Below are positions 13,153 to 43,690 of a stretch of 64,000 bases of DNA, piece after piece (the first letter of the stretch is position 1; every line of letters begins with the position of its first letter). Source of the DNA: Parcubacteria group bacterium LiPW_30. GTDB lineage: Bacteria; Patescibacteriota; Minisyncoccia; Phycocordibacterales; VMEP01. The position numbers were made by a program, and so were the translations under genes. The notes beneath the pieces were generated by a model, which was given only the letters and a program-made list of their open reading frames with translations, searched no databases and had not been told where the DNA came from. The DNA lies in the NCBI GenBank assembly GCA_007375595.1, contig VMEP01000001.1, positions 479,184 through 543,183 of the forward strand, written 5' to 3'.

Positions 13153-13225
13153 GGGCCGTTAGCTCATCTGGTAGAGCACCGCATTTGCAATGCGGGGGTG
13201 GCAGGTTCGAGTCCTGTACGGTCCA
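13153..13225 (+). tRNA. tRNA-Ala (anticodon TGC)
   Basis: Manual fold: acceptor GGGCCGT with G3:U70 (Ala identity), anticodon loop TTTGCAA, T-loop TTCGAGT, discriminator A. No encoded CCA. Confidence 0.9.
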
Positions 13226-13232
13226 CAAAATT

Positions 13233-13257: not shown

Positions 13258-13660
13258 GGAACGTAAAAAACTGCTGGGAGCAGTTTTGCCAGGACTCGAA
13301 AAGCGGAGCGGGGTACCCATGCACCAGCATGGGTCGCGAGCTGCGGACACGAGAAAAATTTTCGACGGAAAATTTTTACTCGCGGAAGAGTCCTGTACGG
13401 TCCACAATGATTCGCTGAGCACATTGTGTAGTTATTTGTGCGAAGCATCATTGTCAGACCTTACTGATGAGAAAGCCGGAGCGCGACGGCGCGAGTCGGG
13501 TGAGAAAGCGAAGAATGAAGCTTTCGCAAGGTCGGACTGAGCGAAGGCGAAGGAGACGGGGTCGCGGGTTTTGCTAGCAAGCAAAAACCTGTGACCGCAC
13601 AAATTTTCAGCAGAAAATTATGGAAAGTAAAAGGTTGCTATTATTTTTAATAATTACTAA
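13258..13660 (+). other. GC-rich, hairpin-dense non-coding region (candidate structured RNA or degenerate integrated element)
   Basis: No convincing ORF in any frame, only overlapping short ORFs. Multiple stem-loops, including CTGCT-GGG-AGCAG, CCCATGC-ACCA-GCATGGG, AAAATTTTC-GACG-GAAAATTTT and GGTTTTGCT-AGC-AAGCAAAAACC. Contains modules shared with other intergenic loci. Confidence 0.3.
13389..13408 (+). repeat. Exact 20-bp direct repeat of the tRNA-Ala 3' end (GAGTCCTGTACGGTCCACAA, also at 13209-13228)
   Basis: Identical 20-mer 160 bp downstream of the tRNA, the pattern expected of an attL/attR-type remnant. Confidence 0.8.
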
Positions 13661-13669
13661 TATAAACAT

Positions 13670-14443
13670 ATGAAAAAAATATTATCTATATTTGCTTTAA
13701 TCCTTATGTTTGCAGCCGCTGAATCTGCCTACGCGACGCTCATTCCTTATACCTCTCAAGAAAGACCGGAATTGGGTGAGATGTACAAAGTTACGCAGGA
13801 AGTCAAAAAGGGCTGGAATCTCATCCCAGCTTTTAATATGAACTACGACCTTTCTGGTTATGACCGAGGTAGTGTTCCGAAATCTGAATACAAAGCGAGA
13901 GGCCCAATATCTTTTGATAGTGAAATACAAAAGGAAAATATACAAGCATTGTTTTACTACTCAGCTAATCAAAATAAATACTTGAATTTTTGGCCAAATG
14001 TAAACGAGGCGTGGGATGGTATTGGAAAAGATGTCTACGCTTTAGGCATAGACCCAAACAATGAACAAGACACAAAAATTCATAATTACCTTTTGACAAG
14101 CGGAATGTGGTTGTACTCCAACAAAGATGGAATTCTGAAATACGAAATGTTTGCGGGGCAAATGAAGGAGTTAATGAACAAAAGAAAATTACTCAAAGGT
14201 TGGAATTTTGTTGTTGTAACTCCTGACATGGGAACAAAAACTTTTGAAGAAATAGTGGGCACATGCAAAATAGAAAAATCATACTACTACGATAGTGTTG
14301 ATACTAAACAATGGATATCTTTTCCGGTTGATCGCATCAAAGACGCAACAGGGATAGTATGGGTTGTGAAAGTTTCAAATAATTGCCAACTTGGAACGAG
14401 TGGTTCCGTCCCTGTTGCGCCATTACCACAATTGCCAAATTAA
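13670..14443 (+). CDS. Hypothetical secreted protein (257 aa)
   Basis: Signal-peptide-like N-terminus (MKKILSIFALILMFAAAESAYA). No recognisable domain. Confidence 0.5.
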   Translation: MKKILSIFALILMFAAAESAYATLIPYTSQERPELGEMYKVTQEVKKGWNLIPAFNMNYDLSGYDRGSVPKSEYKARGPISFDSEIQKENIQALFYYSANQNKYLNFWPNVNEAWDGIGKDVYALGIDPNNEQDTKIHNYLLTSGMWLYSNKDGILKYEMFAGQMKELMNKRKLLKGWNFVVVTPDMGTKTFEEIVGTCKIEKSYYYDSVDTKQWISFPVDRIKDATGIVWVVKVSNNCQLGTSGSVPVAPLPQLPN

Positions 14444-15273: not shown

Positions 15274-15468
15274 ATGTTTTCTTTAGAACCACAATTTTTT
15301 GATATTTTCGGTTTTGTTGTTTTTGTCTATATTACTTTATTGTCTTGGTTATTATTGCGTAGAATTTATGTAAAAAAGTGGATGATTATTGTTTTGTTTT
15401 TAATAGGAGTTATAGGCCTATTGGTTGATGGTTCTGTTGTTTATGTTTATTATTTGAAATCATTTTAA
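15274..15468 (+). CDS. Small two-TM membrane protein (64 aa)
   Basis: Hydrophobic ORF; could be spurious in AT-rich DNA. Confidence 0.3.
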   Translation: MFSLEPQFFDIFGFVVFVYITLLSWLLLRRIYVKKWMIIVLFLIGVIGLLVDGSVVYVYYLKSF

Positions 15469-15478
15469 TTTTTTATAT

Positions 15479-15820
15479 ATGAATCAATTAGAACAGCCAT
15501 CTTCAAAAAAACCAGAGTTGTCGGCGGTTGATAGTGAAAAAGTTTTTTTAGTGCGTAATTTTTTACAGCTTTATCATGCTCAAAGAAAGACAGGCGTAGA
15601 TGCTGAACTGTATTCCCCAAATAAAGAAGAAAATGAAATTATAGCAGAAGAAACAAGAAATTTCGGTAGTGAATTTCATGATTGGATTGATACAGAAGAA
15701 GGTAAGTTCGTAGTTGAAAATTACACCAAAAACCATTCCTTAGAAGAGGTTGGAAAATTCGAAGATATGGAAGACGTTATGAAGAAGTACGAAGCGTATT
15801 GCGCCAAAACACTCCATTAA
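15479..15820 (+). CDS. Hypothetical acidic protein (113 aa)
   Basis: Intact ORF with no motif. Confidence 0.4.
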   Translation: MNQLEQPSSKKPELSAVDSEKVFLVRNFLQLYHAQRKTGVDAELYSPNKEENEIIAEETRNFGSEFHDWIDTEEGKFVVENYTKNHSLEEVGKFEDMEDVMKKYEAYCAKTLH

Positions 15821-15824
15821 TTTT

Positions 15825-16085
15825 TTACTTACTCTCTTCGGTTTTGTCCTTCATTTTACTAAACACAAAGATATAGAGTATTTCAAGAATTCCAATAGTG
15901 TTTATTAAGAGCATGGCGATAAACCACCACTTCTTTCCTAGCTGTGCTGATTTCCAGAGGGCTAGCCCCTTCCACACCAAACTCCAAACTAAAAGCACTG
16001 CGAACAAAAAACTCAGGTATGGAATTAATTGGGGGTTGCTTGCTATGTATTGATCTAAAAAACTTTGTGAAAAAATTTGGTTCAT
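15825..16085 (-). CDS. Small membrane protein (86 aa)
   Basis: Two predicted TM helices; convergent with the upstream + strand genes. Confidence 0.4.
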   Translation of the reverse strand: MNQIFSQSFLDQYIASNPQLIPYLSFLFAVLLVWSLVWKGLALWKSAQLGKKWWFIAMLLINTIGILEILYIFVFSKMKDKTEESK

Positions 16086-16096
16086 TGTGTTTGTTT

Positions 16097-17101
16097 TTAA
16101 TAATAACGATTAATATTTTTAACGTGTTCTTGGTATGTTACAGAGCAGTGGATATTCCTTCTTTTATCGTGTAGATAAAAGAGGCACTCTGTTTTTTTTG
16201 GATTTAATGCAGCTTGGATTGCTGCCATGCTTGGACTTGAGATTGGTGATGGTGGAAGCCCTTTGTTCTGATACGTATTATATGGTGATTCTATGTATTT
16301 GTCTTCAGATAATACTTTTGGCCACCAACCATTTTTCTCAGATCCTTTTGCGTATTGTAATGTTGCGTCAATATCTAAGCTCATTCCGTTGAAAATACGA
16401 TTCCAGATAATCCCCGAAATAAGACGCATATCACGGGTCCCGTTTGATTCACGTTCGATTATTGAGGCTATCTTGAGAGCAGTTTCTATTGAGATTATGG
16501 ATTTGGTTGAACTAGCAAACTTATCAGCAATTTCTTCCTTAAATTCACTTATCATTACCTCAGCAACCTTTTCTGGCGGTGTGTTTTTTTCAAAAGAATA
16601 ACCAGTTGGGAAATAATACCCTTCGGTAAATTTTATATCATCAAGAGCAACCACACTTCTTGTTGTTAGAAAAATATTTTCAGCCTTTGCATCCCAGTTT
16701 AATTTTTTTGCGAGAATGTCGGCAATTTCTTCTTTCCGCATTCCCGGTTGTACACGTATATGTTTAATAGATGGATTTGCAAGCGATGCGACAGAGGAAA
16801 TATTGTCACTTAAAATTTCATAAACCTTCATTGAGATTTCTCGCGCAAGCTGAGCATCTTTATTTTCAGGCTCAAATCGATCGTCAGCAATCGTCTTTTT
16901 TATCGGGTTAACTGTAACAATAAAGTTTTGGTCTGGAGAAAGAGATTCTTTTTTCCCGGCCAGATATAGGATTATTATTGCAACAAAAAATAGTACAAGA
17001 AAAAATCCAGTTGCAATTATTTTTTTACTAAGGAGTTTTGTTTTTTGTTGAGTTCTTGGAATTCTTTTTGATATCCTTTTCGTGGTGGTTCTAGATTTCA
17101 T
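16097..17101 (-). CDS. mltG: Endolytic murein transglycosylase MltG (YceG-like), paralog 1
   Basis: N-terminal TM and a C-terminal YceG signature (SPYNTYQNKGLPPSPISSPS...AALNP...LFYL). Confidence 0.75.
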   Translation of the reverse strand: MKSRTTTKRISKRIPRTQQKTKLLSKKIIATGFFLVLFFVAIIILYLAGKKESLSPDQNFIVTVNPIKKTIADDRFEPENKDAQLAREISMKVYEILSDNISSVASLANPSIKHIRVQPGMRKEEIADILAKKLNWDAKAENIFLTTRSVVALDDIKFTEGYYFPTGYSFEKNTPPEKVAEVMISEFKEEIADKFASSTKSIISIETALKIASIIERESNGTRDMRLISGIIWNRIFNGMSLDIDATLQYAKGSEKNGWWPKVLSEDKYIESPYNTYQNKGLPPSPISSPSMAAIQAALNPKKTECLFYLHDKRRNIHCSVTYQEHVKNINRYY

Positions 17102-17203
17102 CTATATAGTATAAGTTAATTTGTATCTGTTTAGAAGTCTTTATTTTTTTAATAAATGATTTTTATGTGTTGACCAATTTAGGGTATAGGGTATGCTAAA
17201 CGA

Positions 17204-17399
17204 AGGCACCTTAAGGAGAAAACCATGAAATTCGAATATTTGAGTGACGTTCACGGAAGTATTTCTGGCCTCATGCTTGCCTGGTGGTTTGCGACCTTTG
17301 TGCATGGGCCAGCCGTTATTTATGCCCATGCCATGAGCTTTCCGCTGAAAAAGACAGAGGATGAGGTGGAGAAATAGTCTTCTCGCCAGGCACCTTAAG
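17204..17399. repeat. 12-bp direct repeat AGGCACCTTAAG (17204-17215 and 17388-17399) bracketing a small GC-rich ORF
   Basis: Exact 12-mers on both sides of the 50-aa ORF. Confidence 0.4.
17225..17377 (+). CDS. Small hydrophobic peptide (50 aa) with a strong Shine-Dalgarno sequence
   Basis: AAGGAG 6 nt upstream of the ATG. Peptide MKFEYLSDVHGSISGLMLAWWFATFVHGPAVIYAHAMSFPLKKTEDEVEK. About 47% GC. Below the 60-aa cutoff of the ORF track. Confidence 0.35.
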   Translation: MKFEYLSDVHGSISGLMLAWWFATFVHGPAVIYAHAMSFPLKKTEDEVEK

Positions 17400-17443
17400 T
17401 CATCGCCGGAAAACGTGTTTTGTGGTTTAATAAATTTGGTAAA

Positions 17444-17476
17444 ACACCGTCTGTGTAATTTTTAAACAGACGGTGT
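17444..17476 (-). terminator. Strong hairpin ACACCGTCTGT-(11 nt)-ACAGACGGTGT with T-rich run on the minus strand
   Basis: 11-bp perfect stem. The orientation fits a minus-strand transcript, which could be antisense to the small ORF. Confidence 0.35.
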
Positions 17477-17530
17477 AACCAATATTTATTAATGCTTGAT
17501 ACCCTTTATAAATAAAGATAAAAAAATATT

Positions 17531-17890
17531 ATGAATTTTGGAGAACATGACCCAGCACAGCGAAAAGAGGTTTTTATTTCTGATGAAGATATAACAACCC
17601 CATTGATTAAAAAGGAAGGTCGTAGTTTAGAAATCTCGGACATCGAAGAAGATTTTTATGAGCGAGTTGACGCCATAAATCAACTTATCGGTAATCTTAT
17701 GGTGTTGCGCGAAGTTGATGGGCCATCATCTGAAAACGTTGATATGTTGGAAAAACAAATTATTGGCGTAAAGAATGAATTAGGTGGTTATTTAGCTACT
17801 GTCGTAAAAGAAGGACACAACGTAGCGCTAAGAGAAGATATTGAAGATGTTTTGCAAAAAATTAGCAAAGCAATCGGAACGATTCAGTAA
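17531..17890 (+). CDS. Hypothetical protein (119 aa)
   Basis: Intact ORF with no motif. Confidence 0.4.
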   Translation: MNFGEHDPAQRKEVFISDEDITTPLIKKEGRSLEISDIEEDFYERVDAINQLIGNLMVLREVDGPSSENVDMLEKQIIGVKNELGGYLATVVKEGHNVALREDIEDVLQKISKAIGTIQ

Positions 17891-17897
17891 ATAAAGC

Positions 17898-18437
17898 ATG
17901 GATACGCTAGCGCATGGACTCTGGGGAGGACTTTCCGGGAGAGCTCTTTCTAATAAAACTCGCCGAGTGAGTGCTATTAAGGCGTTTCTTTGGGGTGTGT
18001 TTCCAGATTTATTTGCTTTTACCATTCCGATATTTTTCCTTTTATGGAATATATTTTTTGGTGATATGCCACTTTCTTATTGGCCGCCACCTTCGCCACA
18101 TGTCGAGCCGTCACAAGATTTACTCCCTTTTTCGTCGCTCGTAAACAACTTATACAACATAAGCCACAGCTTTTTTGTTTTTGGCGTAATATTTGGGTTT
18201 GTGTATGTATTTACAAAACGACTGCCACTTGAAATGTTTGGTTGGTTTTTACACATTCTTTTTGATATCCCGACACATAGTTATCAATTTTTTCCAACGC
18301 CGTTTCTTTGGCCATTTTCTGATTTTAAGGTAGATGGTATTTCGTGGGGCGTCTTGTGGTTTATGGTTTTAAATTATTCGGTTCTACTTCTTTTTTATGC
18401 GATAATTAGATTTCGAGAAAAAAATAAAAAAATATGA
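17898..18437 (+). CDS. Membrane protein, possibly a membrane-bound metal-dependent hydrolase (YdjM/DUF457-like)
   Basis: Multi-TM protein with His residues at helix starts (LAHG..., HILFDIPTHSY). Family assignment is tentative. Confidence 0.35.
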   Translation: MDTLAHGLWGGLSGRALSNKTRRVSAIKAFLWGVFPDLFAFTIPIFFLLWNIFFGDMPLSYWPPPSPHVEPSQDLLPFSSLVNNLYNISHSFFVFGVIFGFVYVFTKRLPLEMFGWFLHILFDIPTHSYQFFPTPFLWPFSDFKVDGISWGVLWFMVLNYSVLLLFYAIIRFREKNKKI

Positions 18438-18655
18438 AAGAATTTTTAATGAAAAAAATGCTTGAAAGGCAGCTAAAAGATATCCCTAAAGAAATGCAAG
18501 ATAAGATTGTTAAGGTTGCAAGCGAAAACCCAGAACTTATTTCTAAAATAATGGGAGAAGTAGAGGTTGAAGTGAAAAATGGAAAAGATTATATGTCGGC
18601 GGCGAAAGATGTCGCAGTAAAATACAAAGATCAGTTGTCTTCGCTAATTTCTTAA
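18434..18655 (+). CDS. Hypothetical small protein (73 aa)
   Basis: Overlaps the upstream stop by 4 nt, suggesting translational coupling. No motif. Confidence 0.4.
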   Translation: MKEFLMKKMLERQLKDIPKEMQDKIVKVASENPELISKIMGEVEVEVKNGKDYMSAAKDVAVKYKDQLSSLIS

Positions 18656-18658
18656 TAA

Positions 18659-19243
18659 ATGGACAATAAGAAAAAAATAACAATAATAATCGGACACCCA
18701 GATAAGAACACATATTGTGGTGAGCTTGCGCGGCGCTATGAAAAAGGGGCAAAAGAAGCTGGCCATGAAGTGCGATTGGTCGCTATTGGGGATTTAAAGT
18801 TTGATCCAATTTTGCACTATGGATATAAAGTAATTCAGCCACTTGAACCTGATTTAACAAAGGTGCAAGAAGATATTAAGTGGGCGGAACATTTGGTTGT
18901 TGTTTATCCAAATTGGTGGGGGACAATGCCGGCACTACTTAAGGGAATGTTCGACAGAATGATTTTGCCTGGTTTTGCTTTTCGTTTTCACAAGAATGGG
19001 TATATGTGGGATAAACTTTTATCTGACCGCAGTGCTCGTGTTTACATAACAATGGATTCACCTCCACTTATTGCTCGAATGATGTTTGGTGATAATGCTA
19101 ATGAAATCAAGAGAGACATTTTAGGTTTTGTTGGTTTTAGCCCTGTTTCGATAACAAAAATAGGCGCGATTAAAATGATGTCAGATGATGAGCGTGTTCA
19201 TTGGCTTGAAAAAGTAGAGAAGCACGGGAAGAAAGTCGCTTAA
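18659..19243 (+). CDS. Flavodoxin-like NAD(P)H-dependent oxidoreductase (NQO1/MdaB/KefF family)
   Basis: KITIIIGHPDKNTYCGEL N-terminus typical of the flavodoxin-like fold quinone reductases. Confidence 0.55.
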   Translation: MDNKKKITIIIGHPDKNTYCGELARRYEKGAKEAGHEVRLVAIGDLKFDPILHYGYKVIQPLEPDLTKVQEDIKWAEHLVVVYPNWWGTMPALLKGMFDRMILPGFAFRFHKNGYMWDKLLSDRSARVYITMDSPPLIARMMFGDNANEIKRDILGFVGFSPVSITKIGAIKMMSDDERVHWLEKVEKHGKKVA

Positions 19244-19252
19244 ACTTTAATT

Positions 19253-20353
19253 ATGAATCTATCTATAGGAATCGTAGGACTTCCAAACGTCGGCAAATCG
19301 ACGCTTTTTAATGCGCTCACTAAAAATTCGGTGCCGGCTGAGAATTATCCATTTTGTACGATTGACCCATCTGTTGGGGTTGTTTCTGTGCCAGACGAAC
19401 GAGTGGAGAAACTAACAACTTTATCTCATTCAGCAAAGACAATACCAGCAGTCGTTCAGTTTGTTGATATTGCGGGCCTTGTTAAGGGTGCGGCAGACGG
19501 TGAAGGCCTTGGAAATAAATTTCTTTCTCATATCAGAGAAACAAACGCAATAGCAGAAGTCGTTAGAATTTTTGAGGACGATAATGTCATTCATGTTGAT
19601 GGTGGAATAAATCCTCTTCGTGACATTGAAACAATAAATACAGAACTTGCTCTTGCTGATTTAGACACGGTTTCAAAGAGATTAATAAATATTGAACGCG
19701 ATGTTAAAAAGGGCGACAAAATCGCCATATTTGAAAAGGGTATTTTGGAAAAAGTAAAAATTGCTCTTTTAGAAGGTAAACTTGCTTCAGAAATACCACT
19801 TTCGGTAGAAGAGACCGCGGTTGTAAGAAGTATTCACTTGATTACTTCAAAACAGTTTCTTTATGTTTTAAACAAAAAGGCTGGAGGAAAAAATCTTGAC
19901 GAATCACCGGAGGATGAGCGTTTTGTTGCCCTGATGAAGTTTTTAAAAGATGGGAACAGAAGTTTTGTTATTGTTGACGCAAAAATTGAAGACGAACTTA
20001 AGTCGTTTGAAGGGGAAGAAAAAAATAACTTAAGAGAAGAGCTCGGTGCAAAAGATGATGGTATTAAAGATTTAATTCGTGCTGGGTATGAGATGCTTGG
20101 TTTAATTACGTATTTTACAACAGGGGAAGACGAGACGAGAGCTTGGACAGTTCCCAAAAATTCAACTGCGCCAGAAGCGGGTACTGCAATTCATAATGAT
20201 TTTAAAGATAAATTTATTCGTGCTGAAGTTGTTTATTGTGATGATTTACTGTCGTCTGGATCGTATACTGAAGCGCGCGCCAAGGGGCTAGTCCGTATAG
20301 AAGGAAAAGAATATATCGTCAAAGACGGAGATGTGATTGAGTTTAGGATTTAA
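19253..20353 (+). CDS. ychF: Ribosome-binding ATPase YchF
   Basis: GIVGLPNVGKSTLFNALT P-loop, a TGS C-terminus and the typical 366-aa length. Confidence 0.85.
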   Translation: MNLSIGIVGLPNVGKSTLFNALTKNSVPAENYPFCTIDPSVGVVSVPDERVEKLTTLSHSAKTIPAVVQFVDIAGLVKGAADGEGLGNKFLSHIRETNAIAEVVRIFEDDNVIHVDGGINPLRDIETINTELALADLDTVSKRLINIERDVKKGDKIAIFEKGILEKVKIALLEGKLASEIPLSVEETAVVRSIHLITSKQFLYVLNKKAGGKNLDESPEDERFVALMKFLKDGNRSFVIVDAKIEDELKSFEGEEKNNLREELGAKDDGIKDLIRAGYEMLGLITYFTTGEDETRAWTVPKNSTAPEAGTAIHNDFKDKFIRAEVVYCDDLLSSGSYTEARAKGLVRIEGKEYIVKDGDVIEFRI

Positions 20354-20426
20354 GTACTCTTTAGTTAATACCTGTTACCTCTAAATGATCTTTTTATAAC
20401 CCAAAGGTGTTAACTGGACGTGGCAC

Positions 20427-20454
20427 TTGACAAATAAAATAGACCTGCTATAGT
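20427..20454 (+). promoter_or_regulatory. sigma70-like promoter TTGACA-16 nt-TATAGT
   Basis: Near-consensus hexamers read directly from the sequence. Confidence 0.5.
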
Positions 20455-20460
20455 GGGCGA

Positions 20461-20727
20461 TAGTGATGAGGGAACCAGCCTTGGGTGCAAACCCGAGGTG
20501 GGACCGGAAAGTGGTGAACTCATAACGGGATGATTGCAAAAGTCCCTTCTGTTCTTTAAGCGCAGAATGCGCAACGTGGTCTTCTGTTTAGTCAGTCTGG
20601 TATCGTGAGCCGGTCAAAATAGCCACGACGCCTTCAATCTGGCACACGTTAGTACGGAAAAACTATTGGTCTTCGGATCACCAGGGCCCCCAGCACAACT
20701 TCGGTTGAGTGGGGCCCTTTTCATTTT
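20461..20727 (+). ncRNA. Candidate structured non-coding RNA of unknown class (about 270 nt)
   Basis: Promoter upstream, and a strong terminator at the 3' end (GGGCCCC...GGGGCCC plus TTTTCATTTT). About 52% GC, with no ORF of 60 aa or more in any frame. No conserved RNase P, tmRNA or SRP motifs seen. Confidence 0.4.
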
Positions 20728-20884
20728 CGGAAAATAAAACTGATACAATCTGATACACAACATATATTAAATTGGTTGCTATATAAAACCGTGTTTGCAA
20801 GCTTTCTGTAGATATTTAAGTTTAAACCATTTTAGAAAATGGCGGTGCGGTAAAGTCTGAGATTTAAATAAGAACAAACTAATA

Positions 20885-20925
20885 CCCCACCTATAATTAC
20901 GCTATAGCGTAATTATAGGTGGGGG
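20885..20925 (-). terminator. Perfect palindromic hairpin CCCACCTATAATTACGC-TATA-GCGTAATTATAGGTGGG downstream of the minus-strand gene
   Basis: 17-bp stem, with T-rich sequence after it on the minus strand. Confidence 0.55.
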
Positions 20926-20929
20926 TTCA

Positions 20930-21394
20930 CTACTTCTTTTTTAGTTCTTCGATTTCTCGAACAATAGTCATGAGCTGGTTTTCAATATTTGAAAGAAGTT
21001 TTTTATCTTCGCGGTCTTTCTTTTCTTCCTCTGTTTCGTCTTCTTGAATATCCTCAACATCCTCTTGAATGTCTTCAACGTCTTCCTGGATTTCTTCAAC
21101 GTCTTCCTGAATTTCCTCTATGTCCTCAGAGATTTCCTCAATGTCTTTCTCGACGGCATGCAATTGTGCGGTTGTGCGGTTTATCGTTAGCTGAATAAAG
21201 ATTGAAAGATAAATCGCCTCAAGAGAAACGATAGTTGTTAGGACGAGCATTATTTTATCAAATGACACATCAAGTAAGGCGAGGGTAAAAATACCAATAA
21301 AAAATAAGGTATGAATAACAAGCGAAGGAACTGAACCAATTCCGCCGGTAATTTTCATCGAATATTTTTCTAGTAATTCTTTAAACTTGTTCAT
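20930..21394 (-). CDS. Membrane protein with an acidic heptad tandem-repeat tail (EDVEEIQ x about 5)
   Basis: Two TM helices, then repeats of EDIEEIQEDVEEIQEDVEDIQEDVEDIQED and a coiled-coil C-terminus. Confidence 0.5.
   Translation of the reverse strand: MNKFKELLEKYSMKITGGIGSVPSLVIHTLFFIGIFTLALLDVSFDKIMLVLTTIVSLEAIYLSIFIQLTINRTTAQLHAVEKDIEEISEDIEEIQEDVEEIQEDVEDIQEDVEDIQEDETEEEKKDREDKKLLSNIENQLMTIVREIEELKKK
21040..21150. repeat. Coding 21-bp tandem repeat (about 5 units) inside the gene at 20930-21394
   Basis: Units of CTTCAACGTCTTCCTGGATTT, with variants, seen directly in the DNA. Confidence 0.5.
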
Positions 21395-21489
21395 TTCTGC
21401 GCATTATACTCACGAAAACAAAAAGCACAAAAAATGATGCTTTACAAGGGTCTTTTCGAACATTATGATGAGAACACGTAATTAAACTT

Positions 21490-24324
21490 ATGGAGCAGTA
21501 CGACCACCGAAAAATTGAAAAAAAATGGCAGAAGGTTTGGGAAGAAGAAAATACTTTTGCTACAGACGAAGATTTAAGTAAACCAAAATCTTATATTTTG
21601 GATATGTTTCCATATCCATCAGGAGAGGGTCTTCACACCGGACACGTTAAGGTCTACACGGCGAGTGATATTTACGCACGTTATAAACGAATGAATGGTT
21701 TTCGAGTTCTTCACCCAACAGGGTGGGATGCTTTCGGTTTACCAGCAGAGCGTTTCGCGATAAAACATAAAATTCATCCTCGTGTGGCGGTGGATAATAA
21801 TGTTGCTACTTTTAAACGGCAAATGAAGTCGGTTGGTTTTTCTTATGATTGGGAAAGAGAAATTGATACCACTGATCCAAAGTTTTACAAATGGACGCAG
21901 TGGATGTTTCTTAAAATGTATGAAAAAGGGTTAGCTTACGAGTCTTATCAGCCGATAGTTTGGTGTCCTACGTGTCAGACCGGATTGTCTAACGAGGATT
22001 TGGAGGGCAACGCCTGCGAAATATGTGGAACCGTAGCAGAAAAAAAACTAATGAGACAGTGGGTTATTAAAATTACTGAATATGCAGATAGGTTGGTTGA
22101 GGATTTGGATATTTTGAAAGATTGGCCGGAATCATTTAAAGAAGCGGAAAGAAATTGGATAGGAAAAAGCGAAGGCTCAGAAATAGATTTTAAGATAGAT
22201 GGAATGGATAAAAAATTTACAGTGTTTACGACGCGCGCAGATACCCTTTTTGGTGCGACATATACAGTTCTTTCGCCAGAACATAAATTAGTTGCTGAGT
22301 TAAAATCTAATATTACAAATTGGGATGAAGTTTTGCAGTATCAAAAAATAGCAGGTGAAAAAACGGAGATTGAACGAACATCTGAAGGAAAAGAAAAAAC
22401 GGGGGTGAAATTAGAGGGAATTTTTGCAATTAATCCAGCAAATCAAGACAAGCTTCCGGTTTTTATTGCAGATTATGTTTTAGTTCACTATGGTACTGGG
22501 GCAATTATGGCGGTTCCAGCGCACGATGATAGAGACTATGAATTTGCCAAAAAATTTAATTTACCGATTAAGGTGGTTATCGAGCCTGTTACAGGGGAAG
22601 TTAAGGAAAATGAAGAAAAAAGAAAAAGTATCGTTGCGATAGTTAGAGACCCAAAAAATGGGAAAATCCTATCTCTTAATTGGGGTGAAAAATTTGGTGG
22701 ACAGTTATTTATTGGTGGTGGAATTGAAGACGGAGAAAATGCGGAGAGCACGGCAATTAGGGAAATAAAAGAAGAGACAGGTTATAGCGAGATCCGTTTG
22801 GTTGGAACTTCGGAAACAATTCATCATCATTACTTCGCACATTCAAAAGGGGTGGCAAGGAATATTGATGCTATTGGTTTGCATTTTGAACTAATTGGAA
22901 ATAAACAAGAATTAACATCACAAGACGAATCCGAAAGAGGTAAGTTTAAGGTGGAGTGGATAACAGAAGAGGAGGCCGAGAAAAAAGTGAGTGACCCGCT
23001 ACATCAATATGTGTTTCAAAAATTTATAAAAAATAAAGTGTATACAGGAAATGGAATTCTTACTGAGTCACCTGATTTTAGTGGTTTATCTTCCGAAGAG
23101 GCAAAGATAAAAATAACCAAATTTGTTGGCGGAAAAATGAAAACCACATACAAGCTTCGTGATTGGGTTTTTTCTCGCCAGAGATATTGGGGGGAACCGA
23201 TTCCAATTATTCACTGTGAAAGCTGTGGAGTTGTACCCGTGCCAGAAAAGGATCTGCCGGTTGTTTTGCCGGATGTTAAGGCATATGAGCCAACAGGAAC
23301 GGGGGAATCACCACTTGCTGATATTCCTGAATGGGTAAATACAAAGTGTCCAAAATGTGGAGGTAATGCTAAGCGCGAGACAAATACAATGCCTCAGTGG
23401 GCAGGCTCATCTTGGTATTATTTAAGATTTATCGATCCTAAAAATGATAAGGCCTTAGTAGACGAGAAGAAAGAAAAAAATTGGTCTCCGGTTGATGTTT
23501 ATGTTGGTGGGGCGGAACATGCGACACGGCATCTTATTTATGCCCGCTTCTGGCATAAGTTTTTATATGATTTGGGGATAGTTTCAACCAAAGAGCCATT
23601 CATGCGCCTTGAAAGTGTCGGTCTTATTTTGGCTGGTGGTGGGGTAAAGATGTCTAAGCGTTTAGGCAATATAGTTAATCCCGATGAGATAGTTGAGTTA
23701 TATGGGGCCGACACACTTCGAATTTACGAAATGTTTATGGGACCTTTCGGTCAAGCTAGCGCATGGGACACAAAATCAATAATCGGCCCACGTAGATTTT
23801 TGGAAAGAGTTTGGAAACTACAAGAAAAAATTTCAAGTGATGAAAATTATACCGAAAGTGATAATACGATAATGGTTTTAAATCAGACTATAAAAAAGGT
23901 TGGAGAAGATGTTGAAGAATTTAAGTTTAATACCGCAATAAGCCAAATGATGATTTTAGTGAGCACGCTTGAGTCTGAGGAAAATATCTCTCATAAATCT
24001 TTTAATGAACTGTTGCTTCTTTTATCACCGTTTGCTCCACATTTCGCCGAAGAGTTGTGGGAGATAGTTGGTAACGAAAAATCAATGAATAAGGCTGTTT
24101 GGCCAATCTACGACGAATCTAAATTAACTGGAGGGAAGGTTGTAATTGCAGTGCAGATTAACGGAAAATTGAGAGAGACACTCGAGTTTTTAAGCAACGT
24201 TTCAGAGGATGAAATTAAGGAAGCGGTTATGAATTCTCCTCGTGTTAAATCGTGGATTTTGGATAAAAAAATTAAGAAAACAATATATATAAAAGGAAGA
24301 ATGTTTAGTATTGTTTTGGAGTAA
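21490..24324 (+). CDS. leuS: Leucyl-tRNA synthetase with an embedded Nudix-box domain
   Basis: HTGH and KMSKR class I motifs and CP1 motifs (TRADTLFGATY, GTGAIMAVPAHDDRDYEFA). A roughly 130-aa insert contains a perfect Nudix box, GGIEDGENAESTAIREIKEETGY. Confidence 0.9.
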   Translation: MEQYDHRKIEKKWQKVWEEENTFATDEDLSKPKSYILDMFPYPSGEGLHTGHVKVYTASDIYARYKRMNGFRVLHPTGWDAFGLPAERFAIKHKIHPRVAVDNNVATFKRQMKSVGFSYDWEREIDTTDPKFYKWTQWMFLKMYEKGLAYESYQPIVWCPTCQTGLSNEDLEGNACEICGTVAEKKLMRQWVIKITEYADRLVEDLDILKDWPESFKEAERNWIGKSEGSEIDFKIDGMDKKFTVFTTRADTLFGATYTVLSPEHKLVAELKSNITNWDEVLQYQKIAGEKTEIERTSEGKEKTGVKLEGIFAINPANQDKLPVFIADYVLVHYGTGAIMAVPAHDDRDYEFAKKFNLPIKVVIEPVTGEVKENEEKRKSIVAIVRDPKNGKILSLNWGEKFGGQLFIGGGIEDGENAESTAIREIKEETGYSEIRLVGTSETIHHHYFAHSKGVARNIDAIGLHFELIGNKQELTSQDESERGKFKVEWITEEEAEKKVSDPLHQYVFQKFIKNKVYTGNGILTESPDFSGLSSEEAKIKITKFVGGKMKTTYKLRDWVFSRQRYWGEPIPIIHCESCGVVPVPEKDLPVVLPDVKAYEPTGTGESPLADIPEWVNTKCPKCGGNAKRETNTMPQWAGSSWYYLRFIDPKNDKALVDEKKEKNWSPVDVYVGGAEHATRHLIYARFWHKFLYDLGIVSTKEPFMRLESVGLILAGGGVKMSKRLGNIVNPDEIVELYGADTLRIYEMFMGPFGQASAWDTKSIIGPRRFLERVWKLQEKISSDENYTESDNTIMVLNQTIKKVGEDVEEFKFNTAISQMMILVSTLESEENISHKSFNELLLLLSPFAPHFAEELWEIVGNEKSMNKAVWPIYDESKLTGGKVVIAVQINGKLRETLEFLSNVSEDEIKEAVMNSPRVKSWILDKKIKKTIYIKGRMFSIVLE

Positions 24325-24351
24325 TTCTTCTCTTTTTTGCATTATTACCTA

Positions 24352-24445
24352 CCCGCATACACCCCTAAAATACCTTGCGCAGATTGACGAATCGAGCAGA
24401 GCGAAAATTCAGCAGAATTTTACGTGTGTATTTTAGTGGTGTATG
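24352..24445. repeat. Intergenic hairpin element, copy B (module 1 plus an inner AAAATTC-AGCA-GAATTTT hairpin, closed by an 18-bp outer stem)
   Basis: The outer stem CATACACCCCTAAAATAC pairs with GTGTATTTTAGTGGTGTATG. The first 32 nt are identical to 38652-38683. Confidence 0.5.
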
Positions 24446-24534
24446 AAAAAACGAGTACTTGACCTTTACCTTAATAAATGATAGAAATTAGAACACATAA
24501 GCAGTTAGCCAGTCATTTCTAAGAAAAAAACAAA

Positions 24535-25563
24535 ATGTCACAAATCAATTTTAAGCCAAAACAGGTAGCTAAAAAACTTTTGACCGTTCTTCCAGAGCGT
24601 AATTTTGACGTCATCGTTAATCGCTTTGGTTTAGGGGAATCAAGCGAAGCCAAAACCCTTGATGCTATTGGGAAGAAATATGGTATTACCCGTGAACGCG
24701 TCAGACAAATTGAAAATTTTTCTATTCAGGCTATAAAAAAATCAGAAGTTTTTGCGAAAGAAAAAGAGGCTTTTGAGAACCTATTTTCTGCTATAGAGGC
24801 ATTAGGTGCCGTTGTTTCAGAGGATGAATTACTTAGTCACTTCTCGGAAGACAAGGCAACACAAAATCATATTAATTTCTTTTTAGTTTTAGGTGACGCT
24901 TTTGTTCGCTCAAAAGAAGATAATCATTTTAAACACCGATGGAGTATTGATTCAGATATGTCTGAAAAGGTTCACGCTTCATTAAAAAAACTTTACGAAG
25001 GATTAAGTGATGAGGAGATAGTTCCAGAAGGTGAATTGGTCACACGTTTCCTTTCTCACCTTAAAGATGTTTCAGAAAAATATCGTGATGAAGAGATTTT
25101 AAAGCGATGGTTAAAACTTTCTAAATTGATAGACCGTAATCCTTTTGGAGAATGGGGTCGTTCATCTTCTTCAAACATTAGAGCGCGCGGAATGAGAGAT
25201 TATGCATATTTAGTTTTACGTAGACACGGTTCTCCAATGCATTTCTCTGAAGTTGCAAAAGCAATTACTGCTTCTTTTAAAAAACCAGCGCACGTTGCTA
25301 CTTGTCACAACGAGCTTATAAAAGACAAACGCTTTGTTTTAGTTGGTCGTGGTTTATACGCACTATCTGAGTGGGGCTACAACAAAGGGGTTGTTCGCGA
25401 CGTTATAAAAGAGCTTTTAAAGAAAGAAGGCCCAATGAGTAAAGAAGATATATTGAAAAGAGTTATGAAGGAAAGATACGTTAAAGAAAATACAGTCTTG
25501 GTTAACCTTCAAAATACTAATAACTTTAAGAAAAATAAGAACGGTTTGTACACAGCTGTTTAA
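24535..25563 (+). CDS. Putative DNA-binding protein with an N-terminal sigma70 region-4-like HTH and a C-terminal HARE-HTH-like domain
   Basis: TLDAIGKKYGITRERVRQIE resembles sigma region 4.2. The C-terminal KRFVLVGRGLYALSEWGY resembles the RpoE-delta HARE-HTH. Confidence 0.4.
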   Translation: MSQINFKPKQVAKKLLTVLPERNFDVIVNRFGLGESSEAKTLDAIGKKYGITRERVRQIENFSIQAIKKSEVFAKEKEAFENLFSAIEALGAVVSEDELLSHFSEDKATQNHINFFLVLGDAFVRSKEDNHFKHRWSIDSDMSEKVHASLKKLYEGLSDEEIVPEGELVTRFLSHLKDVSEKYRDEEILKRWLKLSKLIDRNPFGEWGRSSSSNIRARGMRDYAYLVLRRHGSPMHFSEVAKAITASFKKPAHVATCHNELIKDKRFVLVGRGLYALSEWGYNKGVVRDVIKELLKKEGPMSKEDILKRVMKERYVKENTVLVNLQNTNNFKKNKNGLYTAV

Positions 25564-25651
25564 TCTAAAAAACTATAGTAAAAAGGCGGGTCGCTATATG
25601 ACCCGCCTTTTTAACTACCACTTAATTTAATTTCGCGATAAGATATAGAGA

Positions 25652-26830
25652 ATGGTAGATTTTCTTTTTTATATACTGGTAATTATATTTGAATTTATAA
25701 ACAACTCCGCCAATTTTTGGTTGCCGGTAGTCCTTGTTTATGTTTTTTGGAAAGTTTGGATTGCGTATATTCAAGCTGATTGGATTTCTAAACTAAAATG
25801 GATACTTCTTGAAGTTAGATTACCAAAAGAGGTTTTCAAAACTCCAATGGCAATGGAGCTTGTTTTAAATGGGCTTCAACAACCTAGCTCGGGGAATAAA
25901 CTAGATCAGTATTGGAAGGGTCGTGTTCCAGACTGGTTTTCTTTCGAGATTGTTTCTGTTGAGGGATCTATTCGCGTATACATTAGATGTCTTTCAAAAT
26001 ACAAAAATATTATTGAAGCACATGTGTATTCGCAATATCCAGAGGCGATAATTAGTGAAGCCTCTGATTACACAGAAAACATGCCTTGGGATAATAAAAG
26101 CGAAATATCTCTTTGGGGTTCTGAATTTGCGCTTACCCAACCAGATCCATATCCAATAAAAACTTATGTTGATTATGGAATGGATAAGGGCTATGTAGAC
26201 GAAAAACAGCGTATTGAGACAATGGCTCCAACACTAGAGTTTCTCGGTTCTATGGGAAAGGGAGAACAAACGTGGATTCAGATTCTTGTTCGCGCAACGA
26301 GGGGGGAAGGTTGGAAAGCTGAAGGTAAAGAGTTGATAAAAAAGTTAATGCACAGAGACGATAAGGATGATGATAAGGCCGTAACAACAAGATTAACGAA
26401 AGGAGAAACCGATGTTATTAACGCTATCGAAAGAAGCATCTCAAAACCAGCCTTTGAAGTTGGTATTCGGGGATTATATTTTGCAGAAAAAGGTAAATTT
26501 AACCCTGCAAATATTACCGCGCTTTTAAGCACCTTTAAACAGTATTCATCACATAATATGAATGGGTTTAAACCGGGTTATGGACTTACTGTTCTTGATT
26601 ATCCATGGGATGACTTTAGAGATATTCGTAAAAAGACAATTTTGAAAAGTCTCTTTGATTCATATCGACTCAGAGCTTATTTTTATGAGCCATATAAGCG
26701 TAAACCATTTGTATTAAACGTTGAAGAGTTGGCCACTATATTCCATTTTCCAAGTGGAGTTGCTGAGACGCCAACTTTGGCAAGAGTTGATTCTAAGCGT
26801 TCAGAGCCACCAGCAAATTTACCGTTTTAA
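25652..26830 (+). CDS. Hypothetical membrane protein (392 aa)
   Basis: N-terminal TM helices and a large soluble domain with no motif. Confidence 0.45.
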   Translation: MVDFLFYILVIIFEFINNSANFWLPVVLVYVFWKVWIAYIQADWISKLKWILLEVRLPKEVFKTPMAMELVLNGLQQPSSGNKLDQYWKGRVPDWFSFEIVSVEGSIRVYIRCLSKYKNIIEAHVYSQYPEAIISEASDYTENMPWDNKSEISLWGSEFALTQPDPYPIKTYVDYGMDKGYVDEKQRIETMAPTLEFLGSMGKGEQTWIQILVRATRGEGWKAEGKELIKKLMHRDDKDDDKAVTTRLTKGETDVINAIERSISKPAFEVGIRGLYFAEKGKFNPANITALLSTFKQYSSHNMNGFKPGYGLTVLDYPWDDFRDIRKKTILKSLFDSYRLRAYFYEPYKRKPFVLNVEELATIFHFPSGVAETPTLARVDSKRSEPPANLPF

Positions 26831-38651: not shown

Positions 38652-38683
38652 CCCGCATACACCCCTAAAATACCTTGCGCAGA
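38652..38683. repeat. Intergenic element copy C: 32-nt module 1 (CCCGCATACACCCCTAAAATACCTTGCGCAGA), identical to 24352-24383
   Basis: Exact 32-mer shared with locus B. A longer variable body (to about 38850) contains the module CATTACGGAGCGCGACGG, shared with loci A and D. Confidence 0.5.
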
Positions 38684-38866
38684 CTTGTGAATTTTCTTAA
38701 AAATTCCCCTTTTTCCATTTTAAAAACATTACGGAGCGCGACGGTATTTCGTATCTAAATACCCATAAGATACAGCTGAAAGACATTGCGGAATGCGGCG
38801 GCATGAGCATAGCAAAAATTTAGCAAAGTTTTATGCGTGTCTTTCAGATGTATCTTAATAAGAAAT

Positions 38867-43573: not shown

Positions 43574-43602
43574 AATAGGAATTTTGTCTTTTGAACCCCT
43601 GT

Positions 43603-43690
43603 ATTCGCCATTAAAATACATTACGGAGTCTGACGAGGCGAGTATAGTAAATTTTCAGCAGAAAATTATACGCGTATTTTAATGGCGAAT
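43603..43690. repeat. Intergenic hairpin element, copy D (17-bp perfect outer stem ATTCGCCATTAAAATAC/GTATTTTAATGGCGAAT enclosing CATTACGGAG... and an AATTTTC-AGCA-GAAAATT hairpin)
   Basis: Perfect 17-bp inverted repeat. The inner 21-mer AAATTTTCAGCAGAAAATTAT is identical to 13601-13621. Confidence 0.5.

Follow-up and report, generated by a model that had tools for sequence, protein, structure and literature searches.

What is encoded in the GC-rich stretch, free of long open reading frames (ORFs), that follows ychF in the genome of the Parcubacteria group bacterium LiPW_30? The locus lies in a 64-kb piece of contig VMEP01000001.1 (positions 479,184 to 543,183), which was analyzed as a whole and is called the window here; all coordinates are those of the window unless a contig is named. 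A sequence-only reading had described positions 20427-20727 as an orphan transcription unit, most likely for a trans-acting structured RNA, with a highly diverged RNase P, 6S or signal recognition particle (SRP)-like RNA as its fallback. It had proposed a scan with Rfam, a search for homologues and a covariation analysis, and had named a conserved micro-protein as an outcome that would contradict it. The results showed that the locus holds a gene for a noncoding RNA (ncRNA) of about 262 nucleotides (nt) with its own promoter and terminator, that a second copy of it from a metagenome retains the same fold, and that the gene is a strain-specific insertion. The window has a GC content of 37.1%, its YchF is identical to TSC55055.1 of LiPW_30, encoded on a 680-kb contig, and the orientation of its genes is almost all plus-strand; the closest named relatives by protein comparison are Taylorbacteria and Yonathbacteria. 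As first described, ychF, co-oriented with the RNA gene, ends upstream of it (3′ end at 20353), and a convergent minus-strand gene follows, encoding a coiled-coil or membrane-like protein of 154 amino acids (aa) at 20930-21394, with its end at 20930. The gene for leucyl-tRNA synthetase (LeuRS) starts at 21490.

The transcription unit consists of three elements.

20427 to 20454, plus strand: sigma-70-type promoter TTGACA-16-TATAGT with a TG extended −10, score 11/12 (−35 TTGACA at 20427-20432, 16-nt spacer, −10 TATAGT at 20449-20454)
20460 to 20725, plus strand: predicted structured RNA of about 262 nt, its start predicted at 20460-20462 and its 3′ end in the T-run at 20718-20727
20683 to 20727, plus strand: intrinsic terminator with outer stem AGGGCCCC/GGGGCCCU and an inner CAAC-UUCG-GUUG extension, followed by TTTTCATTTT

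The promoter was recovered exactly where the sequence-only reading had placed it and was the top-scoring site within 19000-22500 (3.5 kb). The GC content over 20455-20727 was 51.6%, in line with the roughly 52% given earlier and comparable to that of the tRNAs of the window (49-60%). The all-GC stem of 7 bp that had been taken for the terminator is also present, GGGCCCC at 20684-20690 being paired with GGGGCCC at 20711-20717; it is the base of a longer hairpin (20683-20718), capped by the inner UUCG hairpin and followed by the T-run, which folds at −21.9 kcal/mol. Our consensus terminator scanner overlooked this hairpin solely through its 8-nt loop limit.

A homologue was then found among 241 million JGI metagenome records, where the 20-mer GGGACCGGAAAGTGGTGAAC had a single match, on a 4.8-kb contig of 46% GC (L010). 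Positions 1036-1298 of L010 were 83% identical to 20461-20721, and the identity rose to 88% outside one variable hairpin. The alignment starts where transcription is predicted to start and stops in the T-run of the terminator, whose L010 counterpart folds at −18.1 kcal/mol. L010 has a promoter, TTAACA-17-TATACT, in the same register as that of the window. Upstream of the RNA, conservation between the two copies was limited to the −35 region (ACG.GG.ACTT.ACAAA); the remaining flanks were dissimilar. Thus, the RNA at 20460-20725 belongs to an autonomous promoter-RNA-terminator unit, and the conserved part runs exactly from promoter to terminator. As an ensemble, the unit is far beyond chance because the homology with L010 starts and stops at the predicted transcript ends, the promoters are in register, and both copies have a common structure with compensatory changes (see below).

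The neighborhoods of the two copies have no protein gene in common. The upstream neighbor is a 75-aa membrane ORF in L010 and the unrelated ychF in the window, and the downstream neighbors are convergent in both loci; the RNA is therefore not a leader, and the earlier remark that no plus-strand gene lies downstream for regulation in cis holds in two unrelated contexts. The other genes of L010 encode small membrane ORFs, a DUF218/SanA protein with relatives in Parcubacteria, and NT5C. Because of this gene content, L010 appears to come from the same broad group and from a different lineage within it. The RNA family is not yet described, and the two members found are both from uncultured Parcubacteria-like (Patescibacteria) groundwater bacteria.

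The fold of the RNA was examined with the two copies. Folded as a single sequence, the window RNA was only mildly better than its shuffles (z = −1.9). RNAalifold on the two-sequence alignment gave 76 pairs, none of them broken. The curated structure, which is this consensus minus a spurious helix involving the U-tail, has 73 pairs in 11 helices, and all 73 are standard pairs in both copies. The consensus energy was −71.75 kcal/mol, versus −45.4 ± 4.7 kcal/mol in column shuffles (z = −5.6), and none of 300 shuffles was as good. The elements of the consensus fold are as follows.

20466 to 20523, plus strand: 5′ three-way junction formed by P1, P2 and P3
20466-70/20519-23, plus strand: P1, invariant
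20475-86/20491-502, plus strand: P2, with a GCAA tetraloop and one G-C to U-A compensatory change
20503-06/20512-15, plus strand: P3, with loop GAAAG, invariant
20495 to 20541, plus strand: block of 47 nt identical in both copies, GAGGTGGGACCGGAAAGTGGTGAACTCATAACGGGATGATTGCAAAA, comprising the P3 hairpin, the junction strands and the P4 loop GAUUGCAAAA
20527 to 20546, plus strand: P4 hairpin GGGAU-GAUUGCAAAA-GUCCC, with a U.G to U-A change at the closing pair
20547 to 20659, plus strand: central domain, closed by the long-range helix P5 (20547-55/20651-59), which is invariant
20560-64/20568-72, plus strand: P6, with a C-G to U-A compensatory change
20573-81/20641-50, plus strand: P7, long-range, with a G-C to A-U compensatory change
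20584-86/20593-95, plus strand: P8, invariant
20599-20632, plus strand: P9, the variable hairpin, with two compensatory changes
20599 to 20640, plus strand: hypervariable part, made of the P9 stem and a linker, the loop GGUCAAA(A)UA being kept in both copies
20668 to 20679, plus strand: P10 hairpin GGUC-UUCG-GAUC, with a G.U to G-C change

Two-sided compensatory changes were found at 7 pairs in five helices: one each in P2, P6 and P7, two in P9, and two in the terminator (G-C to U-A and C-G to A-U). When the 3′ partner strands were slid by 1-3 columns, only 0-1 such changes remained, and the observed value was reached in 1 of 500 partner shuffles. Half of the substitutions (27 of 54) fell within a 45-column region of the alignment (columns 137-181), where the P9 stem has been rebuilt from a different sequence in L010 while its loop is retained. 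The fold also features GNRA and UUCG tetraloops and two long-range helices (P5 and P7), and the 10-nt loop of P4 holds, as read from the sequence, the self-complementary hexamer UUGCAA. These results, obtained with two sequences, show that both copies retain one 11-helix fold through compensatory substitutions.

The RNA is noncoding. The 514-bp segment that carries it has no ORF of at least 60 aa, as had been noted for the unit itself; with a start codon, the longest ORF has 54 aa (minus strand), and read from stop to stop, the longest frame reaches 68 aa. The 54 substitutions were spread over the three codon phases as 20/16/18, without periodicity, and the alignment contains two 1-nt indels, with stops in all six frames of both copies. 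An ORF from the ATG at 20466 runs for 19 codons in the window and stops after 9 in L010, and its differences are the compensatory changes of P2. A 393-aa chimera of the six-frame open stretches had no match at an E value of ≤1 among 5.8 billion proteins. The micro-protein that would have contradicted the earlier reading was thus not found: no ORF is common to both copies.

The RNA also matches no described family, as the sequence-only reading had judged by eye for RNase P, transfer-messenger RNA (tmRNA), SRP and riboswitch cores. With Rfam 15 at the gathering score, the whole window gave three tRNAs only. At an E value of ≤10, the region 20350-20950 and the bare RNA of either copy gave noise (small nucleolar RNA, microRNA and counter-transcribed RNA models, 12-23 bits), with nothing from RNase P, 6S, SRP, tmRNA, riboswitches, T-box, HEARO or ribozymes. 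The RNaseP_bact_a/b models in particular had no match in the window at the gathering score or on the RNA of either copy at an E value of ≤10, and ARAGORN reported the same three tRNAs and no tmRNA in the window.

Known families and elements were further compared with the RNA one at a time. An RNase P P4 helix made from CR-I (GAGGAAAGUCC) and CR-V (ACAGAA..GGCUUA) was rejected: the candidate strand AAAAGUCCC (20538-20546) pairs locally with GGGAU, the downstream partner GGGACUU is absent, and ACGGAA (20654-59) pairs with UUCUGU in P5. RNase P is also essential, and the RNA was missing at this locus in L001, L002, L004, L006, L009 and L047. For 6S RNA, which had no model match, the fold is multibranched, with a terminator hairpin at the 3′ end and no pairing between the 5′ and 3′ ends. 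For SRP RNA, the hairpin of CCGGAAAGUGG has 4 bp and a loop of 5 nt but not the AGCA/GGAA internal loops, and tmRNA was discarded on the ARAGORN and Rfam results. A riboswitch, T-box or ribosomal leader was rejected with the convergent next gene in both loci, the second terminator that intervenes in the window and the lack of a model match; likenesses of GGGAA...GGUGCAAACC to the cobalamin core and of GGUGGGACCG to a T-box sequence were not borne out by the models. No segment complementary to either strand of the terminator was seen outside it when the sequence was read by eye. An IS110 bridge RNA or IS1111 seekRNA, which lies beside a DEDD/RuvC-like recombinase gene within its element, would not fit a segment with no ORF of ≥60 aa, nor L010, where the neighbors are the small membrane ORFs, DUF218 and NT5C; the flanks of the window junction had no match of ≥8 nt to the variable region or of ≥9 nt to the whole RNA, and those of L010 had one chance 8-mer. 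An IscB/TnpB omega RNA was rejected for want of an adjacent gene and of a HEARO match, and because the RNA ends 140 nt before the end of the segment. A miniature inverted-repeat transposable element or insertion sequence was rejected as well: terminal inverted repeats are lacking, the segment is single-copy in the 64-kb window, and the window and L010 have no ends in common. A type I toxin-antitoxin mRNA or micro-protein was dismissed on the coding analysis above. A CsrB-like sponge was discarded, the 6 GGA motifs in 265 nt being about what we estimate from base composition, as was a hammerhead, since GUGAUGAG, which reads GUAAUGAG in L010, lacks the catalytic C.

Next, the locus was compared with its relatives in 20 contigs fetched around ychF or the convergent 154-aa gene, none of which contained the RNA. 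The following features define the insertion.

20354 to 20867: strain-specific segment of 514 bp carrying the RNA gene, between the ychF stop and an ancestral bidirectional terminator
20347 to 20353: left copy of the 7-bp direct repeat GATTTAA, at the ychF end and including its TAA stop
20861 to 20867: right copy of GATTTAA, at the right end of the inserted segment
20885 to 20924: bidirectional terminator, a 40-nt palindrome of 18 pairs common to ychF and the convergent 154-aa gene

In L001 and L002, whose YchF is 98% identical, the ychF stop leads directly to the palindromic terminator and the 154-aa gene. The same empty site was found in L047, whose YchF differs by 1 aa and whose junction reads ...GAATTTAA|ATAATAACAAATTAATACCCC. 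The palindrome is therefore ancestral and outside the insertion, since it stands directly after ychF in all three. The segment 20354-20867 is also missing in the more distant L004/L006 and L009. The first base of the repeat, G at 20347, is a single-nucleotide polymorphism (SNP), A in the empty-site strains, so that the ancestral microhomology is ATTTAA. The repeat may mark a target-site duplication, but illegitimate recombination leaves microhomology of 6-7 bp as well. No terminal inverted repeats joining the ends of 20354-20867 were found, and no second copy of the segment was present in the 64-kb window; among 46 other fetched loci, L010 was the only match.

The spot between ychF and the 154-aa gene also carries other alleles. 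In L016-L021, which have an identical 154-aa protein, it holds 151 bp of unrelated DNA; in L005 (3299-3913) and L008 (6159-6773), it holds a minus-strand gene for a 204-aa protein with no Pfam match. Thus, this intergenic site is a strain-variable recombination hot spot, and the RNA gene is accessory, being present in one strain and missing at this locus from near-identical ones. The sequence-only reading had overlooked this strain-specific insertion in a hot spot, which is the most informative fact on the unit. On its right, the insertion abuts a diverged tract, with 33 SNPs relative to L001 in 20868-21158 and zero from there to 22250; on its left, there was 1 SNP relative to L047 in the last 440 nt. 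Because the SNP-dense tract adjoins the insertion in a mosaic population, the RNA-bearing allele probably came from a diverged relative already in possession of the RNA, through homologous recombination.

The mosaic extends over 15289-25866, where comparison with L047 and L001 gave 0-2 SNPs per 250 nt alternating sharply with up to 20% divergence; the highly diverged stretches include 19000-19250, at the end of a flavodoxin-like gene just before the ychF start. This SNP pattern points to frequent homologous recombination between related Parcubacteria strains. The 154-aa gene itself has a 21-nt tandem repeat of 5.3 copies (21037-21147) encoding acidic EDIEEIQEDVEE-type repeats, and its product is 147, 154 or 173 aa long across relatives.

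The RNA copy of L010 is also in an exchangeable island. The stretch of about 1.7 kb that holds it (~945-2663) is bracketed by an imperfect repeat of 31-35 nt, which L024 and L025 carry once, upstream of the DUF218 gene, and the block 305-2663 of L010 is swapped for other genes in L024. Several other features of these contigs were recorded. A unit of about 55 nt, CACATATTACACCATGAATCAAATGATTATGATGTGCTTAGCCCCATATCCC, occurs as three tandem copies in L024 (250-420) and once in L010 (250-305), where a conserved truncated ORF gives way to the variable island; this ORF, at the left end of the L010 island, we take to be transposase-like from a motif (YIERNAVRAKL...WQWGS), an unconfirmed assignment for which Pfam finds nothing. 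The left part of L010 is 33% GC, unlike a block of 55-60% GC next to the RNA copy (1400-2400), which contains two convergent membrane-protein genes (69 aa and 174 aa); the 174-aa protein has a weak 8xMP match, and no phage or plasmid relatives of it were found. A purine-rich stretch at 2400-2660 contains ATAAGCACGTCTA(G/A)AAC twice.

Wider searches returned no further copy. A blastn search against phage and plasmid collections gave no match, a 19-base loop pattern gave 5 chance matches and no homologue in the GTDB species representatives, and six pattern scans of IMG/VR, two of them with 20-mers, gave no homologue and 14 chance matches to a 16-mer. The RNA was absent from 9 contigs fetched around relatives of DUF218, and nhmmer over the fetched loci, in three batches, again found L010 as the sole match. 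Literature searches on structured RNAs of Patescibacteria, and with the conserved sequence strings, yielded nothing of relevance.

Taken together, we lean, with restrained confidence, toward an independent accessory gene for a highly structured ncRNA of about 262 nt that would act in trans through its folded shape and be spread by recombination. The RNA would most likely bind a protein encoded elsewhere, as a scaffold or decoy, a role that architecture and context suggest with modest confidence, and the invariant 47-nt junction and loop core (P3, P1′ and the P4 loop) would be its functional surface. Because there is so much structure and an invariant junction/loop core, fold-based binding of a protein or ligand, or catalysis, is favored over an antisense seed. 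The RNA may travel as passive cargo of homologous or illegitimate recombination in hypervariable spots, with no transposition machinery of its own, since its copies show no common element ends, inverted repeats or guide-like complementarity to the junctions. The trans-acting structured RNA of the sequence-only reading thus stands as far as it was said to be independent, noncoding, structured and not a cis element, and the checks it had proposed gave one homologue, 7 two-sided changes with every pair kept and no Rfam family; its housekeeping-like fallback found no support.

Several points weigh against this reading. The promoter taken by itself is at chance level, as 3 matches of at least 11/12 were seen in the 64-kb window and 3.8 were expected from shuffles. 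The covariation is thin, the alignment being one of two sequences, and P1, P3, P5 and P8 are invariant and thus predictions without covariation support. The homologue searches were scans for exact patterns inside the invariant block, which more diverged relatives would escape, so that the rarity of the RNA and its absence elsewhere in the genomes of the relatives are not proven. The insertion is documented in one assembly; L022, a contig of the same strain that is 100% identical from 20895 on, ends within the palindrome. Finally, the trans-acting, protein-binding mechanism is drawn from architecture and context, with partner, ligand and target all hypothetical.

Other explanations of the unit were weighed against the same results. 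A base-pairing small RNA (sRNA), in which a conserved single-stranded segment (the CU-rich 20544-20559 or the P4 loop) would pair with distant mRNAs while the remainder is a stabilizing scaffold, would account for the standard bacterial sRNA anatomy of the gene (a stand-alone unit with a strong promoter, terminator hairpin and U-tail), for its long stretches of complete conservation (47 nt and the 16-nt TCCCTTCTGTTCTTTA) and for its accessory, horizontally acquired state, which many sRNAs share. However, 262 nt in 11 helices, with two long-range helices and multiway junctions kept by compensation, goes far beyond a typical seed-type structure, the consensus fold pairs the CU-rich stretch within P5, and no extended complementarity appeared when the segment was compared by BLAST with the 64-kb window; we regard an sRNA of this type as unlikely. 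That the RNA is instead the orphan subunit of a mobile-element or defense ribonucleoprotein encoded elsewhere (guide, bridge or omega-type), or a nonautonomous element mobilized in trans, is suggested by its position in strain-variable insertion hot spots of both genomes, by the direct repeats around the two copies (7 bp at the window segment, 31-35 nt at the L010 stretch), by the single hypervariable region within an otherwise conserved scaffold, by a size and complexity within the range of omega, bridge and retron RNAs, and by the truncated, tentatively transposase-like ORF (unconfirmed by Pfam) next to which the L010 island starts. Neither copy has a recombinase, nuclease or reverse-transcriptase gene in or beside it, however, and the two loci carry unrelated DNA between the RNA and the repeats, which leaves no conserved ends; terminal inverted repeats are missing too. 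The variable part, instead of being a free guide, is the stem of a hairpin in which compensatory changes occurred, and it has no flank match of ≥8 nt; the RNA stops at a terminator of its own, 140 nt short of the segment end, whereas an omega RNA continues into the flank; and HEARO and the other element RNAs in Rfam gave no match. These facts make an orphan subunit distinctly unlikely.

A housekeeping RNA so diverged that the Rfam models miss it (RNase P, 6S, SRP or tmRNA) would be GC-rich, strongly structured and driven by a strong promoter, as this RNA is; the size fits a minimal RNase P or large SRP RNA, and Patescibacteria are divergent, with RNAs that covariance models can miss. Such an RNA should not be missing at the locus from strains that are near-identical elsewhere, and the invariant 20-mer should not occur once in the JGI records, which include close relatives (L007, L009, L020 and the P0241 contig). 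There was no Rfam match on the bare RNA and no tmRNA, the local pairing of AAAAGUCCC leaves no long-range pairing of the P4 type, and the fold is no rod with a central bubble and has no SRP domain IV motif. We therefore consider it very unlikely that the RNA is a diverged form of RNase P, 6S or SRP RNA: the segment is strain-specific, its core is nearly absent from the public data searched, and its fold does not match. For a cis element (a riboswitch or leader with a lost gene, an element in the 3′ untranslated region of the gene before it, or a regulated antisense promoter for the convergent gene), one could cite the aptamer-like 5′ three-way junction followed by a terminator and the arrangement of both loci, with a co-oriented gene upstream and convergent genes downstream. 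We see a slim chance of this, given that neither locus has a co-oriented downstream gene, the bidirectional terminator at 20885-20924 separates the RNA from the convergent gene, the upstream genes are unrelated, no segment was seen to compete with the very stable terminator (itself conserved with compensatory changes), and no riboswitch or T-box model matched. A similarly slim chance is left for a micro-protein, a type I toxin or a functionless, decaying relic of foreign DNA. Short ORFs do occur (one of 19 codons starting with the ATG at 20466, others of 26-54 aa on either strand), but they are not conserved, being cut after 9 codons or shifted by the 1-nt indels, with no codon periodicity and no protein homologues. 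The segment is indeed foreign to the locus, as a relic would be, but 73 of 73 pairs, 7 compensatory changes, the 47-nt invariant block, the promoter and the terminator were kept across two lineages with unrelated flanks. A bolder extension of the favored reading, to which we assign a low probability, is that Patescibacteria possess a class of mobile, RNA-only accessory genes, in which the RNA would function alone and be traded as a minimal promoter-RNA-terminator cassette without a dedicated protein. Candidate functions would then be those of a ribozyme, of an RNA toxin or decoy, or self-assembly by dimerization through the invariant, palindromic UUGCAA of the P4 loop.

Other features of the window were observed apart from the RNA gene. 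The LeuRS gene (21490-24324) encodes a NUDIX hydrolase domain at aa 378-508 (Pfam E value of 1.8e-13, above the cut-off), which is inserted right where a match to the CP1 editing domain breaks off, having covered profile positions 1-151 of 185, and the same architecture is annotated in the orthologues of L001, L004, L009 and L016. The 3′ end of tRNA-Ala(UGC) is present as an exact 20-nt direct repeat, GAGTCCTGTACGGTCCACAA, at 13209-13228 and 13388-13407; about 160 nt with a terminator and GC-rich hairpins lie between the two copies, and the pair reads as a signature of integration into a tRNA gene. The adjacent 13410-13600 is GC-rich (up to 64%), unannotated and without an Rfam match at an E value of ≤1. 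A 41-nt intergenic motif, CCCGCATACACCCCTAAAATACCTTGCGCAGA..., occurs at 24352-24392, 38652-38692 and 43598-43638, upstream of a sigma-70-like gene, infA and dnaK, respectively, the later copies being 90% and 68% identical to the first. The 21-nt AAATTTTCAGCAGAAAATTAT is identical at 13601-13621, upstream of the gene at 13670, and at 43649-43669, upstream of dnaK. Both motifs are possibly shared promoter or operator elements. In the gap 17102-17521, an ORF of about 50 aa (17226-17378) has a good ribosome-binding site (AAGGAGAAAACC ATG) and a product that looks hydrophobic or membrane-like; L004 and L005 have a predicted gene of 55 aa at the corresponding position.

The genomes of Patescibacteria are very small, and we know of almost no characterized ncRNAs in them beyond the universal ones. 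The present locus means that a gene for a large RNA with an intricate fold is part of their flexible gene pool; this gene is gained or lost between near-identical strains and is common to lineages of different base composition, with no protein gene travelling along. If the family is enlarged, it would offer a new RNA fold for characterization, a natural contrast of presence and absence between LiPW_30 and the empty-site strains for finding a partner or phenotype, and a marker of recombination hot spots in uncultured bacteria. We consider it a solid lead, not yet a discovery: a new RNA family of a familiar general kind, the stand-alone structured bacterial ncRNA, with the twist of being a strain-specific RNA-only cassette.

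Among known systems, classical sigma-70 sRNAs resemble this RNA in having a promoter, a length of about 260 nt and a terminator hairpin with a U-tail, in lying between convergent genes and in being acquired horizontally, but the conserved secondary structure of the RNA described here is far more extensive. The housekeeping RNAs (RNase P, 6S, SRP and tmRNA) are likewise structured, GC-rich, 200-400 nt long and independently transcribed, as is predicted here, whereas the present RNA is strain-specific and has neither the P4 pseudoknot, the bubble rod and domain IV nor the tRNA-like domain with its tag. Bridge RNA or seekRNA, the IscB/TnpB omega RNA and the retron msr-msd share with it the inserted, strain-variable DNA, a similar length and one hypervariable segment; they differ in that no enzyme neighbor, conserved ends or guide-like flank match is found here and the terminator lies inside the insert. 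A further likeness is to raiA motif RNA, OLE, ROOL, GOLLD and HEARO, large orphan structured ncRNAs of bacteria of the type discovered by the Breaker lab, with functions obscure or only lately emerging, which are GC-rich RNAs in AT-rich genomes with multiple helices, GNRA and UUCG loops and long-range helices, and which form stand-alone units with no obvious cis target and a patchy distribution. The RNA of LiPW_30 differs from this group in that it has no Rfam 15 match to any of them, has two members and originates from Patescibacteria, and OLE, ROOL and GOLLD are larger. ROOL, GOLLD and HEARO are linked to variable or mobile DNA, as is the RNA described here.

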